From: Candidatus Altimarinota bacterium
GTDB lineage: Bacteria > Patescibacteriota > Gracilibacteria > UBA4473
Direction: 5' to 3'
NCBI GenBank assembly: GCA_965231215.1
Contig: OZ246423.1
Coordinates: forward strand, 352,001 to 416,000
Length of the DNA stretch: 64,000 bases
In this document: in pieces, positions 32,433-49,751 of the stretch
How positions within the stretch are numbered: the stretch's first letter is position 1
Layout: every line of letters starts with the position of its first letter
The notes under the pieces: generated by a model
What the model saw: the letters and a program-made list of their open reading frames with translations, nothing else
Told to the model about the DNA's origin: nothing
Database searches by the model: none
Position numbers and translations under genes: made by a program

Positions 32433-35400
32433 CTACTGCTTATTCAACCACTCCCTCGCCTTCACAAAAGCCTCAATCCACGGAGAAATTTCATCATTTC
32501 GGTTCTCTGGATAACATCCCCAGTTCCAAGGGCGAATAGAACGTTCAATATGCGGCATAGTAATCGTATGTCGACCGTCGTTTGAAGTCATCATAGCGAT
32601 GCCTTCAGGGGAGCCGTTGGGACAAGCAGGATAAGCCCCACCGTATTGAAAATTGGCCACAACATTGTAGTCTGAAATTTTATTTTTCAGTTCAAACCGA
32701 CCTTCCCCATGAGCCGACCATACGCCTAACTGGCTTCCGGCCAAACTTCCAAACAGAACAGAATTATTTTCCTGAATTTTTACTCCAGCAAAATTACACT
32801 CAAATTTTTCAGAGCTATTGTGTTTCATTCGGATTGATCCCGGAGCATCTGGAGTAAGCACATCTAGTTCTGCCAACAACTGACATCCATTACAGACGCC
32901 AAGGGAGAGCGTATCTGGACGCCCTAGGAAAGCCTCAAGGGTAGCTTTGGCTTTCGAGTTGTAGAGCACCGCTCCGGCCCAGCCTCGAGCCGATCCTAGT
33001 ACATCCGAGTTAGAGAATCCTCCAACCGCTACCAACAGCTGGACATCTTCCAGAGTTTCTCGACCCGCAATCAAATCTGTCATATGTACATCTCGCACCT
33101 CAAATCCAGCCAATGCCATCATATAAGCCATTTCTCTTTCAGAGTTTGATCCTTTGTCTCTAAAGACTGCCGCCATTGGTCTTTTCCCAGAATATGTAGG
33201 AACTTTTCCATCAAAGTTTTGAGGGAATTTAAATTCTATGGGTTGCTGGTCAAAATGAGCATATCGGTCTTTGGCCTGTGGCCGATTTGTTTGTTCTAAT
33301 TCAAACAGATGCGAAGGTTTAGCCCAGATTCTTCGGTAGTGATTTATGTCCAGTGTCAGCGATTTTGAGTCCGGACTTGCCGAGACCGAAGCCCCTTGTA
33401 AAGTTTCAGATGAATCATTTTCCCTAAAAAGTCTGGACTCATAAAGCACGAGTTTTTCACTATCATTCACTTCACCGAGATCATAAAAAGAAATCCCAGC
33501 CATATTCAGCGTAGATCGAACCAGTTCAATATTCTCTCCTGCTACTTCAAATACATATCCCGCATTCTCACTGAAACATTTTTCAATTATATCGCCTCCA
33601 GGGAGTTGGTCTACGTCTACTGTCGCACCAAGATTTCGTGAGGCAAAACACATCTCCAAAAGTGTGGTAATAATACCTCCAGCAGACACATCATGCCCAG
33701 CGAGAATTTTTCCATCTTTGATGAGTCCTTGAAGCGCTTCAAAGGCGGCTCCAAAAAATTGTGTATCTTTAATATCGGGAACCTCTGGGCCAATTTTATT
33801 GAGTATTTGAGCCAAACTAGAACCTCCTAATTTGAAATCATCTTGAGAGAGATTGATGTAATAGATTCTGTTGCCTCTTTGGTTATTAAATACCGGTTTA
33901 ATAATCTTTTTCACGTCTTCACATTCTCCCATTGCGGAGATAATCACCGTTCCTGGTGAAACCACTTTTTGATCTGGATATTTCTGTACCATAGAGAGGG
34001 AGTCTTTCCCTGTTGGAACATTTACCCCTAGTTCAATGGCAAAGGTGGAAACCCCTTCGACCGCTTCATAAATTCGAGCATCTTCTCCGGGATTTTTACA
34101 CGGCCACATCCAGTTAGCACTCAGTGAAATAGATCCTAAACCCTCAGTGATTGGGGCCCCTAGGATATTAGTGAGGCTCTCGGCAATAGCGTTGCGGCTT
34201 CCCGCTGCTGGATCCACCAGTCCCACAATAGGACTGTGTCCAATGGCAGTGGCAACTCCCTTTTCTCCAGTATAATCGAGCGCCATCACACCACAATCGG
34301 CCAATGGCAATTGGAGCGTTCCCACGCATTGTTGTTGGGCTACTTTTCCTGTGACACATCGGTCTACTTTATTGGTAAGCCAATCTTTACACGCTACGCC
34401 TTCCAGTTGGAGTACTTGTTCTAAATAGACTTCTAATTTTTCAGGATCATAATCTAAAGCTTCGAAATTTCGTTCCTCGGTATCTCCCTTGGTAACCGTC
34501 TTTGGTGGATTTCCAAATAACATCTTTAGATCTAAATGCACAGGAGTTTGACCTAAGCGCTCAGATTTAAAGGCTATCGTTCCACTACCGGTAATTTCTC
34601 CCACCACATACATTGGGCTTCTTTCTCTATCGGCAATAGCTTGAAGTAGGTCAATTTTGTCTTGAGCTACCACCAGACCAATTCGTTCTTGTGACTCGTT
34701 CCCGATAATTTCTTTTACCGATAGTGTTGGATCTCCCACCGGCAATTTATCCAGATCAATCACTCCTCCATGCAGTTCCAAAAGTTCCGAAAGACAGTTA
34801 AAGTGTCCCCCAGCTCCATGGTCATGAATAGAAATAATTGGATTTTTTTCCATCTCAGTACAAGCCCGGATCACATTAGCCACTCGTTTCTGCATTTCTG
34901 GGTTAGAACGCTGAATGGCGTTAAGTTCTAAACTCCGATCTAGCTCTCCAGTGTCCACAGAAGACACCGCTCCTCCCCCCATTCCAATTCGGTAGTTATC
35001 TCCCCCCAATACGACTATTTTATCACCTACTTGAGGCTCTTGTTTTTGGGCGTCTTCAGCCCTGGCCCACCCAATGCCTCCCGCTTGCATGATGACTTTA
35101 TCATAACCCAAATTTTGATCATCGCCTTGATGTTCAAAGGTCAAAAGCGAACCACAAATCAGTGGCTGTCCGTATTTGTTCCCAAAGTCAGACGCTCCAT
35201 TTGAAGCTTTTACCAAAATATCTTTTGGAGTTTGATAGAGCCAGGGACGTTCTTTTAAATTCTTTTCCCACGGACGATTCTCCTCTAACCGCGGATAAGA
35301 CGTCATATACACCGCCGTTCCAGCCAGTGGGGCTGATCCTTGCCCGCCTGCCAACCTGTCACGGATTTCTCCGCCAGATCCGGTAGCGGCTCCGTTGAAC

Positions 35401-47480: not shown

Positions 47481-49751
47481 ATGACTAAAAAAGAAGCCCC
47501 TAAGAAGTTTAAATTTGAACCTAAAAAGATTCCCACCAATAGTGGTTGTTACCTTTATTATGATGCAGAAGACAACCTCCTTTATGTAGGCAAAGCCAAA
47601 AATCTCCGAAAGCGAGTTTCTCAATACTTTCAAAAGACCAAGCAGACCGTTAAAACTTCACTTATGGTCTCTAAAATTACGCGAATAGAGACTCAAGTAG
47701 TCAACTCAGAGATTGAAGCCCTTATCCTCGAAAATAACCTTATTAAAGAGTATAAACCTAAGTTCAATATTCTGCTCAGAGATGATAAAAATTTCACCTA
47801 TCTGAGAGTTACCAACGAAACCGAACCCAAATTAGAGATTGTACGTCGAGTGATAAAAGATGGCAGTACTTATTTTGGTCCCAAGACCTCCGGAAAAGAA
47901 TTCAAAGAAACCGTAAAATTCTGTCAAAAATTCTTTGGAGCCAAAATGGTAAAACCCAATCAAGACTACTACATCAATCAACTCATCGGCAAGGAACTTC
48001 CCCTTGAAGAGTACCAAGCCAATATGCAACGGATGAAAGCCTTCCTCCGTGGTCAGACCAAAGAAGTCATCGCCGAACTCACTGAACGCATGATGGCTTT
48101 TGCCAAAGAATCCAACTTTGAAGCCGCTGCACGTATGCGAGACACCATCCAATCCATTGATAAATCCACTCAAAAACAAACCGTAGAATTTACTGATCTC
48201 ATCGACAGAGACTTTATAAACTATCATCAAGACGGCAAAGATATTTTTTGTGTCCGAATGGCTTTCCGGCAAGGAAAATTTCGAGATCTCAACCATATAA
48301 AATTCAAAGGCGCTGAATTCAACGAGCCCTCAGAAATACTCACACAAATGCTGATGCAGTTTTACGAAAAGGTAACAGACTACCCCAGAGAAATTTTTGT
48401 CCCAGAAGCTCTAGAAAATCATCAAATTCTAGAACAATTCCTGACTGATAATTTCTTTGAAAATCAAAAAACCGAAATCTGCACACCGCAAAAAGGAGAT
48501 AAGAAAAAAATCTTAGAACTCGCCGCCAAAAACGCCAAAAACGAAGCTGAAAAAACAAAGATAGAGGAAATGAGCCAGGCTGAAAACTTTTCAAAAGCTC
48601 TCCCAGAACTTACCAAAGCCTTAAACCTCAAAGAACCTCCAAAGCGTATGGAATGCTACGATATCTCACATTTTTCTGGTACCCATACGGTGGCCTCAAT
48701 GGTGGTATTCATAAATGGGCAACCAAAAACTTCTGAATACCGTAGATTTAATATTAAGAGCCTCCCAAACGGAAAAATCAATGACTTTGCCAGTATGGAA
48801 GAAGTACTCAGTCGCCGCTTCCAGAGAACCGAGTCCGGACTCACCCAAGTCCGGACTCGGGAGGTGGTGATGAAGCCGGTTGAGACTAAAAAAGAGTGGA
48901 CTGAATATCACCGTATCCGCAAGAGTGAGCTCTTTGACCGCTACCAGCCAGAGGTTCAGTACGACCCAGAACAGAAGGATGAATTTAAAAACAAAAATCA
49001 CCCGATGGTGTTTTATCTTGGTAACCAAATTATTGGGACTGTGCGGCTCGATGAGAAACCAAAAAAGCAACTTATTATGCGGCTAATGGCAATTGATGAG
49101 CCACTACAGAGGCAAAACTACGGCTCCCAAGCTCTCAAGCTCATTGAGACCTGGGCACTAGAACAAAAATACAAGCACTTAGTGCTAAATGCCCAACCAG
49201 CAGTGATTGATTTTTATCTGAAAAACGGATTCGAAGCTGACTACTGGAAAGGCGACGCCCATTCAGATTGTGGCTGTGTGCCAATGGGTAAAGAACTCCT
49301 TGTCAAAAAAGAAAAATGGAGCCTCCCAGATCTAGTTGTCATTGATGGAGGAAAAGGACAGCTCAGTAGCACTATGAAAGTATTTAAAGATCTAAAAGTT
49401 GAAGGATTTGATCCACAAAATCAAATCATTTCGTTGGCCAAACGGGACGAACAGATTTTCCGGCCAAGCAGCCGTGAGCCCATAGAGCTAGATTTTGATA
49501 ATCCTGGACTAAAGCTCCTGCAAAGAATCCGTGATGAAGCGCATCGATTTGCCATTAGTGCCAACCGAAATCTTCGGCAAAAATCCCAGACTAAGTCCGT
49601 CCTAGATGAAGTTCCAGGCATCGGCCCAGGAAGTAAAAAGAAGTTGATGAAAGAGTTTGAAACAGTAGGAGGTATCCGTGAAGCCAGCGACCAAGACCTA
49701 CTCAAAATCATAAATAAAAAACAACTAGACAATCTCCGAAAACACCTTTGA
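47481..49751 (+). CDS. uvrC: Excinuclease ABC subunit C with inserted GNAT domain
   Basis: GIY-YIG (GCYLY..LYVGKAKNLRKRVSQYF), UVR (NFEAAARMRD), ECYDISH, LPDLVVIDGGKGQ, RIRDEAHRFA, HhH (VPGIGP). Confidence 0.96.
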   Translation: MTKKEAPKKFKFEPKKIPTNSGCYLYYDAEDNLLYVGKAKNLRKRVSQYFQKTKQTVKTSLMVSKITRIETQVVNSEIEALILENNLIKEYKPKFNILLRDDKNFTYLRVTNETEPKLEIVRRVIKDGSTYFGPKTSGKEFKETVKFCQKFFGAKMVKPNQDYYINQLIGKELPLEEYQANMQRMKAFLRGQTKEVIAELTERMMAFAKESNFEAAARMRDTIQSIDKSTQKQTVEFTDLIDRDFINYHQDGKDIFCVRMAFRQGKFRDLNHIKFKGAEFNEPSEILTQMLMQFYEKVTDYPREIFVPEALENHQILEQFLTDNFFENQKTEICTPQKGDKKKILELAAKNAKNEAEKTKIEEMSQAENFSKALPELTKALNLKEPPKRMECYDISHFSGTHTVASMVVFINGQPKTSEYRRFNIKSLPNGKINDFASMEEVLSRRFQRTESGLTQVRTREVVMKPVETKKEWTEYHRIRKSELFDRYQPEVQYDPEQKDEFKNKNHPMVFYLGNQIIGTVRLDEKPKKQLIMRLMAIDEPLQRQNYGSQALKLIETWALEQKYKHLVLNAQPAVIDFYLKNGFEADYWKGDAHSDCGCVPMGKELLVKKEKWSLPDLVVIDGGKGQLSSTMKVFKDLKVEGFDPQNQIISLAKRDEQIFRPSSREPIELDFDNPGLKLLQRIRDEAHRFAISANRNLRQKSQTKSVLDEVPGIGPGSKKKLMKEFETVGGIREASDQDLLKIINKKQLDNLRKHL
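48829..48860. repeat. Perfect 13-bp hairpin of two AGTCCGGACT units inside uvrC
   Basis: CCGAGTCCGGACT-caccca-AGTCCGGACTCGG at the 5' edge of the GNAT insertion. Confidence 0.8.

Follow-up and report, generated by a model that had tools for sequence, protein, structure and literature searches.

We have analysed the uvrC gene of a Candidatus Altimarinota bacterium (Gracilibacteria), contained in a stretch of 64,000 nucleotides (nt) of contig OZ246423.1 (positions 352,001 to 416,000), which we call the window and in whose coordinates positions are given below. In this gene a complete GNAT acetyltransferase domain is nested in frame within the nuclease domain of UvrC, and the insert starts with a perfect palindromic hairpin. 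A previous reading of the window, made from the sequence only, had proposed that both features arrived together, that is, that a once independent GNAT gene was captured along with an element resembling a repetitive extragenic palindrome (REP). The account that we consider probable has three parts, a working UvrC, an old nested GNAT that would be a cargo with a function independent of its host, and a REP hairpin that landed later. The architecture and the history of the fusion are well supported by the comparisons described here, and for the function of the GNAT we argue indirectly, from its sequence relatives.

The uvrC open reading frame (ORF; 47481..49751, forward strand) encodes 756 amino acids (aa) plus the stop codon and matches the NCBIfam equivalog TIGR00194 in two stretches with 509.6 bits (cut-off 285.45). 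Residues 1-449 (47481..48827, forward strand) contain, by Pfam and by alignment to the Thermotoga maritima structures 2nrt and 2nrr, the GIY-YIG (PF01541, 49.4 bits), UVR (PF02151, 24.0 bits) and UvrC_RNaseH (PF22920, 89.9 bits) domains and the first half of the endonuclease domain PF08459, including the motif ECYDISH. Residues 614-756 (49320..49751, forward strand) provide, by Pfam and the 2nrt alignment, the strand LPDLVVIDGGKGQ, the motif EAHRFA and the C-terminal helix-hairpin-helix (HHH_5, 24.7 bits, E 3.3e-5, slightly under the cut-off of 27). PF08459 as a whole reaches 172 bits, split by Pfam into two stretches around the GNAT. The domains, their order and the conserved motifs are those of canonical UvrC (TIGR00194; T. 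maritima 2NRT/2NRR, 1YCZ/1YD6), and YDISH, IDGGKGQ and DEAHRFA align with the T. maritima protein 2nrt. Among 55 aligned relatives the residues D394, S396, H397, D622, G623, G624 and H688 of the 5'-incision domain are invariant, and the alignment of relatives shows no variation in the catalytic motifs of the two nuclease domains, which the window protein retains. The catalytic triad of the 5' incision we take to be Asp/Asp/His (in DxSH, DGG and EAHRF), as in the UvrC of T. maritima. This is the sole UvrC match in the genome that holds the window (G000, a single contig of 1.33 Mb, 99.3% complete), where the partner genes uvrB (965.8 bits) and uvrA (1344 bits) are also found at full length and above their cut-offs. 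We infer that the host protein is a working UvrC, predicted from its sequence to take part in nucleotide excision repair together with UvrA and UvrB.

The GNAT domain covers aa 464-613 (48870..49319, forward strand), with matches to PF00583, PF13673 and PF13508 and with its fold recovered by AlphaFold and Foldseek. The sequence-only reading had placed it, in frame and flanked by RRF and LPDL, in the RNase H-like domain of UvrC, and this is borne out both by the Pfam domains, a complete acetyltransferase domain being found there (Acetyltransf_1, PF00583, aa 475-584, 44.6 bits, cut-off 20.7, E 2e-11), and by the alignment at the point of insertion, so that we are dealing with a genuine in-frame nested fusion. 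The translation includes the GNAT motifs IIGTVRL, MAIDEPLQRQNYGS and LNAQPAVIDFYLKNGF, and the domain is present in one copy in the genome. When aligned to the T. maritima protein, residues 449 and 612 of the query both pair with residue 81 of the 2nrt chain, which means that ca. 162 residues (linker plus GNAT) have been inserted at a place where 2nrt has no loop. The insertion site is a surface loop between the helix ending in RRF and the strand LPDLVVIDGG, and the insert immediately precedes PDLVVIDGG, a strand that carries a catalytic Asp.

Modelled alone, the insert adopts a GNAT fold with very high predicted local distance difference test scores (pLDDT 95.9), and a Foldseek search with this model gave 460 matches in the PDB at E <=0.001; among the matches listed these are GNAT acetyltransferases, with probability 1.00. 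The structure prediction that had been called for thus came out in favour of the assignment. The top structural matches were 5JPH and 3EFA, with template-modelling (TM) scores of 0.73-0.78, followed at TM ~0.7 by 1Q2Y, glyphosate acetyltransferase and GCN5/PCAF; 1Q2Y was also the sole sequence match of the GNAT in the PDB (E 1e-3). On the strength of the model, these matches confirm the GNAT fold and name no substrate. Bacillus subtilis YjcF (1Q2Y), Staphylococcus aureus SACOL1063 (5JPH) and the Lactobacillus plantarum protein 3EFA share fold and size with the window GNAT, but their identity to it is only 18-21%, no substrate turned up for any of the three, and they allow no transfer of function. 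NCBIfam offered no usable hint of a substrate (ArsN2 matched with E 5.7e-4 and 19.5 bits against a cut-off of 125), and a literature search on the substrate of SACOL1063 found nothing useful.

It might be suspected that uvrC and a GNAT gene had been joined by a chimeric assembly or a frameshift artefact, and one contig from sequencing run X3 does end within the hairpin, at 48855. Against this, a contig of 9921 nt from run X1 spans both junctions (48500-49600) with 0 differences; it may derive from the source sample and so is not independent, but 7 other independent assemblies and 28 public cluster representatives show this in-frame arrangement too, and the artefact is effectively refuted. Run X1 also yielded a contig of 590 nt with a depth of 2.6 that matches window 48806-49341 by flanks of 26 and 20 nt, between which 60 different letters replace a stretch of 534 nt. 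This is probably the insert-free uvrC of a co-occurring relative, the flanks being short.

The age of the fusion was examined in 41 genomes, namely G000 and 40 relatives of the same class, from which 35 full-length UvrCs were recovered. In a tree of the UvrC core, built without the columns of the insert, the 7 rows carrying the window-type insert, which we call GNAT_A (G000, G004, G002, G001, G018, G011 and G024), form one clade with a support of 93 in the Shimodaira-Hasegawa-like approximate likelihood ratio test (SH-aLRT), sister to 5 insert-free rows. An eighth genome, G003, also carries GNAT_A, in this case partial and at a contig end. At the level of the family, GNAT_A is in frame in 8 of 43 genomes and 4 of 25 genera. 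GNAT Pfam domains were present in 33 of the best 120 public cluster representatives (clustered at 90% identity), and in 28 of these 33 the whole insert could be aligned. Among the 7 orthologues, 25 columns of the GNAT are invariant. The search for insert-free versions among the relatives, which the sequence-only reading had recommended, was successful, and these versions have a linker of typically 11 aa, in keeping with the statement that this UvrC linker is normally short. From these alignments it is well supported that the insert is old, having apparently been gained by the common ancestor of several related genera of Gracilibacteria/Peribacteria, and equally well supported that it has been kept in frame under constraint since then.

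The loop that received the GNAT is a site of varied inserts in this class. Inserts of at least 115 aa were found at the same place in 21 of the 35 full-length UvrCs, the other 14 having a short linker (11-33 aa). Besides the 7 UvrCs with GNAT_A, another 7 carry a third type of GNAT (GNAT_C), one a different GNAT again (GNAT_B) and one a GNAT-like insert without a Pfam match; the remaining ones hold an ANT(2'')-like / NTP_transf_5 nucleotidyltransferase (3 UvrCs), a P-loop kinase (AAA_18, with weak Zeta_toxin and CPT matches) plus unassigned sequence (one) and a Ser_hydrolase domain (PF06821, one). DUF559, a Vsr-like endonuclease domain, occupies the same loop in the public proteins P0175, P0216 and P0240. 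No phmmer match was obtained between the window GNAT and the GNAT_B or GNAT_C inserts, even at E up to 10, and the three types must therefore be either separate recruitments or diverged beyond recognition. A cargo bounded by repeats was considered and rejected; at the 22 insert-bearing loci no GC-rich 10-mer, direct or inverted, is shared by both junctions, and the words that are shared are AT-rich only and occur at 2 of the 22.

Some other observations concern these UvrCs. In P0238 the DUF559 domain is located elsewhere, between GIY-YIG and UVR, and the peptides PQPPLSRG and PLLLGEGGGEV, just before DUF559, resemble translated GC-rich repeats as judged from the protein sequence alone. P0002, a UvrC of 970 aa, has a tandem pair of GNATs in the loop. 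The UvrC match of one class member, at G034:C35:6624-7851, consists of two pieces with 2 TGA codons in frame in each, as would be expected if TGA were translated in this lineage. A scan of metagenomes with peptide patterns returned 80 loci, most of them ordinary insert-free UvrCs, the patterns having matched the conserved UvrC flank, and a single-protein scan of genome contigs recovered one irrelevant Saccharibacteria GNAT only. A literature search at the level of abstracts, with subscription journals outside its coverage, turned up no description of a domain nested in UvrC, and to our knowledge a UvrC catalytic domain hosting another enzyme has not been reported before.

The relatives of the GNAT itself lead to other host proteins. 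A search with the insert against 1.84 billion representatives gave 507 matches at E <=0.001; among the best 150 of these 507, 2 were of UvrC length and most were free-standing proteins of ~150 aa. In the GNAT-domain phylogeny (159 segments), another of the checks that had been proposed, the UvrC copies group with GNATs nested in isoleucyl-tRNA synthetase (IleRS). The clade in question (14 rows, SH-aLRT 99) consists of 7 UvrC-nested GNATs, 4 nested in IleRS (L140-L143), the public IleRS P0026 and the free-standing P0003 and P0134. As far as this sequence tree goes, the closest relatives of the UvrC GNAT are thus the GNATs nested in the IleRS of sister genera. A GNAT nested in an essential housekeeping enzyme is likewise what defines the NCBIfam family NF040702 (isoleucine--tRNA ligase with N-acetyltransferase domain). 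However, the host in the window is UvrC and the IleRS of the sister genera additionally carry a histidine phosphatase domain; they fall outside NF040702 because their scores of 291.8 and 225 bits are far below the cut-off of 1999. The combination of nested GNAT and histidine phosphatase domain was seen in L140-L143 (from G055, G047, G044 and G042), P0026 and P0024, and within this IleRS group the open frame of one protein also contains a stretch resembling a Y1 transposase, that of another a stretch resembling MuF_C. In P0079, an rRNA adenine dimethylase of the RrnaAD/KsgA family, a GNAT of the same broad group is nested between two halves of the enzyme. Since the same GNAT module is found in unrelated housekeeping hosts, we would favour a host-independent function.

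The hairpin at the start of the insert is a doublet of REP-like palindromes (48829..48860), in which two copies of AGTCCGGACT are separated by CACCCA. It is as perfect as the sequence-only reading had described it, with 13-nt arms (48829-48841 and 48848-48860) that are 100% complementary and 6 nt apart. As RNA, this stretch has a folding energy of -33.6 kcal/mol (z -3.3), which 1 of 200 shuffled sequences matches. Most of a 14-residue linker, TESGLTQVRTREVV (aa 450-463, 48828..48869, forward strand), is encoded by the hairpin, and this linker varies in length and sequence among the orthologues. It is also the sole internal segment of low confidence in the full-length model (residues 454-457 with pLDDT <50, a mean of 53 for the block 451-460). 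The hairpin as a whole is unique in the genome and, of the 7 orthologues that could be read across the linker, G000 alone has it; 5 have none, and G001 has a different palindrome, a triple GTTCGAAC identical in form to those beside its own transposase (repeat doublets in G001 gave 23 matches, against 0 for the control). The finding that the sequence-only reading had itself singled out as speaking against a joint capture, an insert spread through the lineage with homologues free of the hairpin, is largely what the orthologues present. With the hairpin restricted to G000 and the insert clade-wide, the hairpin is to be seen as a later landing and not as the scar of the GNAT capture. From the alignments it appears to be a recent, lineage-specific REP doublet that came to rest in a permissive linker. 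A terminator and an internal promoter were also considered for the hairpin, and a consensus scan called neither. In P0154, P0158, P0163, P0164, P0166 and P0157 there are linker peptides (DPGI..IPGS, EPGF..NPGS, KPGL..SSGL) that look like translated palindromes, a resemblance seen in the protein alone.

That the hairpin is REP-like, as had been suggested, is supported by the over-representation of its palindrome in the genome and by its presence at both ends of a lone putative REP-type transposase gene. AGTCCGGACT has 10 copies in G000 and ranks 1 of 320 among the palindromic 10-mers with 6 G+C, the runner-up having 6 copies; within the window there are 5 matches with <=1 mismatch against 0.94 expected, a number reached by 0 of 100 shuffles. 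Four doublets exist in the genome. The uvrC one has a spacer of 6 nt. A second, in purL (33368..33439), consists of AGTCCGGACT, 52 nt and AGTCTGGACT (one mismatch) and is read in frame between the PurM-like and glutamine amidotransferase domains. The third, also in frame and with a 54-nt spacer, belongs to a gene for a LysE-family transporter (L044, G000:C1:218760-218833), in whose central loop it is translated as ESGL...KVRT, the same reading as in uvrC. The fourth, with a spacer of 53 nt, is crossed by no open frame of >100 aa. An extragenic location is thus not what we find for 3 of the 4, and in the relatives an open frame of at least 150 aa runs through 10 of 18 doublets.

The transposase is an ORF at G000:C1:605284-605889, resembling the REP-associated tyrosine transposases (RAYT), with copies of the repeat at 605315 and 605921. 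It is the one match to PF01797 (Y1 transposase) in the genome (35.1 bits, cut-off 23) and is similar to Escherichia coli TnpA-REP (4ER8) at E 3.5e-4. A 10-bp palindrome is present within 250 nt of all 8 homologues examined (in 7 genomes; L159-L167 in the relatives), in several copies in 7 of them, G018 having a single copy of its candidate repeat. The sequence differs from genome to genome: AGTCCGGACT in G033, AGTTCGAACT and AGGTCGACCT beside the first and the second transposase copy of G001, AACCCGGGTT in G005, AGACCGGTCT in G003, ATCCCGGGAT in G002 and AATCCGGATT (the one copy) in G018. For 6 of the 8 homologues the own palindrome was seen mid-gene and in frame as well.

Compared with the REPIN/RAYT systems, in which REPs are arranged as doublets, as described by Bertels and Rainey (2011; PMC3116915) and in PMC3337134, and with the structure of E. 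coli TnpA-REP (PDB 4ER8), the system of G000 is alike in having short palindromes as inverted doublets with a spacer, a Y1 transposase gene that is present once and has the repeat on both sides, and a repeat sequence that varies between genomes together with the transposase. It differs in that the unit is merely a 10-bp perfect palindrome of low copy number (10) and in that the doublets are mostly (3 of 4) in frame within genes and not intergenic. By the definition given in PMC3337134 and PMC3116915, the uvrC hairpin behaves as a REPIN, save for the frequent intragenic position. Of the 41 genomes, 6 contain paired AGTCCGGACT; the reversed control pattern is absent from all of them. The palindromic elements of Rickettsia are in-frame palindromic repeats in working genes, translated as surface loops. 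The G000 repeats are likewise in frame in working genes, but, comparing by description, they are far shorter (26-74 nt) and tied to a RAYT-like transposase.

The genes next to uvrC are on the opposite strand (DUF5665 and YGGT upstream, UPF0102 downstream), and a separate GNAT gene is not among these neighbours. A start codon of its own had been proposed for the GNAT, and the arrangement described does exist, with GGAGG at 48860-48864, 5 nt and ATG at 48870 (48860..48872, forward strand). It is a Shine-Dalgarno look-alike supplied by the 3' flank of the hairpin, and probably not a start in use. A good GGAGG before this Met is found in 1 of the 7 orthologues, that of G000, and the Met itself is Leu in 2 of 28 relatives. 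It pairs with residues 7-10 of the free-standing homologues and hence is not their start codon. A consensus scan found no promoter-like site upstream of GGAGG, which in the minimum free energy fold is base-paired with the sequence upstream, and the product made from 48870 would carry merely the second half of the RNase H fold. From all of this sequence evidence, a used internal start at 48870 is unlikely. The claim of a bias towards G-ending codons at the beginning of the insert stood in part. The bias is real, the ratio of G- to A-ending Lys, Glu and Gln codons being 10:6 in the first 40 GNAT codons against 43:140 in the rest (Fisher p = 0.0018, for a region chosen post hoc and leaving out the 14-codon linker), and the G+C content at third codon positions (GC3) is raised locally in codons 436-495. 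However, both are local, specific to G000 and unseen in the orthologues L003-L005, for which reason they were dropped as evidence of recent capture, and a foreign composition of the GNAT was rejected as such evidence.

How, then, would the present gene have arisen? The proposal that an independent GNAT gene was captured with a REP-like element, the internal GGAGG-ATG still giving a separate product, has in its favour that the hairpin is a true REP-type repeat, the Shine-Dalgarno look-alike and local rise in GC3 just described, and the existence of free-standing homologues of ~150 aa. We regard it as very improbable given that the hairpin is confined to one of the 7 orthologues, that the palindrome of G001 matches its own RAYT-like gene, and that no GC-rich repeat joins both junctions at the 22 loci, together with the points against the start codon. 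In the history that we favour, a complete GNAT fold (aa 464-613) was spliced into the RRF/LPDLVVIDGG loop in the ancestor of the clade, and later a doublet of the own REP of the genome, presumably mobilised by its single RAYT-like transposase, landed in the unconstrained 14-aa linker, where it is translated as a disordered peptide (ESGL...VRT), GGAGG-ATG being a by-product of the hairpin flank. The GNAT would bind acetyl-CoA and have its own substrate to acetylate, for which a small molecule, or some protein outside excision repair, is the most likely candidate. The reason for its nesting in UvrC would be that the loop tolerates inserts, and in a genome of 1.3 Mb a small accessory enzyme might in this way be assured of expression and stability.

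Several observations sit uneasily with this history. A cargo unrelated to repair leaves the long retention in UvrC unexplained. The RAYT-like ORF reaches 60.7 bits on NF047646 (REP-associated tyrosine transposase), under the cut-off of 80, and the full-length model (pLDDT 86.6) has a predicted TM score of 0.58 and is unreliable on how the GNAT docks against the nuclease. Two more concern the activity of the domain. The pyrophosphate loop by which GNATs bind acetyl-CoA has the motif Q/R-x-x-G-x-G/A. In the window protein this loop reads QRQNYG, the first Gly of Q-x-x-G-x-G being replaced by Asn; 26 of 28 relatives have the Gly, the window protein being one of the two exceptions, so that catalysis could be weakened here. 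Among 60 GNATs, G83 is at least 90% conserved and G85 invariant. Moreover, the GNAT evolves faster than its host, G000 and G004 being 50% identical over the GNAT and 73% over the core of UvrC. Both facts could be read as signs of a degenerate, non-catalytic GNAT that persists in G000 as a structural spacer or a ligand sensor. We find this distinctly unlikely, in view of the very high confidence with which the fold is predicted and of the retention of the FY tyrosine (Y116, invariant among 60 GNATs) and other invariant residues. The pyrophosphate loop of GNATs binds through backbone amides, and a single Asn substitution need not abolish the binding of acetyl-CoA.

A rival of greater weight, although in our judgement still rather improbable, is that the GNAT is coupled to repair and acetylates UvrB, UvrC, a nucleoid protein or a lesion-bound molecule at the incision complex, by which it would regulate or assist excision, by analogy with histone acetylation in eukaryotic excision repair. 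The position directly before the strand with the catalytic Asp, the retention in frame across 4 genera, the recruitment of three different GNAT subfamilies to the same loop and the presence of the protein acetyltransferases GCN5/PCAF among the best structural matches are all consistent with such a coupling. Yet IleRS and an rRNA dimethylase, enzymes unrelated to repair, also host this GNAT subfamily, the loops of sister lineages hold a nucleotidyltransferase, a kinase, a hydrolase or nothing, and small bacterial GNATs match the model at least as well as GCN5 does. A bolder variant, to which we give a small chance, is that the UvrC loop before the DGG strand and comparable loops of IleRS and KsgA are cargo slots through which the Gracilibacteria exchange small enzyme modules (GNAT, ANT(2'')-like nucleotidyltransferase, zeta/CPT-like kinase, serine hydrolase, DUF559 nuclease) and that the cargo of UvrC modifies a target at the site of the lesion, such as a genotoxin bound to DNA or a partner in repair.

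The fusion and the hairpin are variants on two themes already known, those of nested-domain proteins and of REP/RAYT elements. Nevertheless, UvrC is among the most conserved repair enzymes of bacteria, and most of the UvrCs sampled here (21 of 35) carry an insert of the size of a domain, the loop having received at least three GNAT subfamilies without recognisable kinship and three or four further folds. The variety found in a single loop amounts to a natural swap set on the tolerance of essential enzymes to nested domains, and the inserts may show how accessory enzymes are packaged in ultra-small genomes. The compact REP/transposase system, in which the palindrome co-varies with the transposase between close genomes, is a convenient model for specificity. 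If the cargo does act on repair, it would add a novel level of control to excision repair in bacteria, and if the loops are indeed slots for exchangeable modules and the UvrC cargo works at the lesion, excision repair in these organisms would come with interchangeable chemistry.

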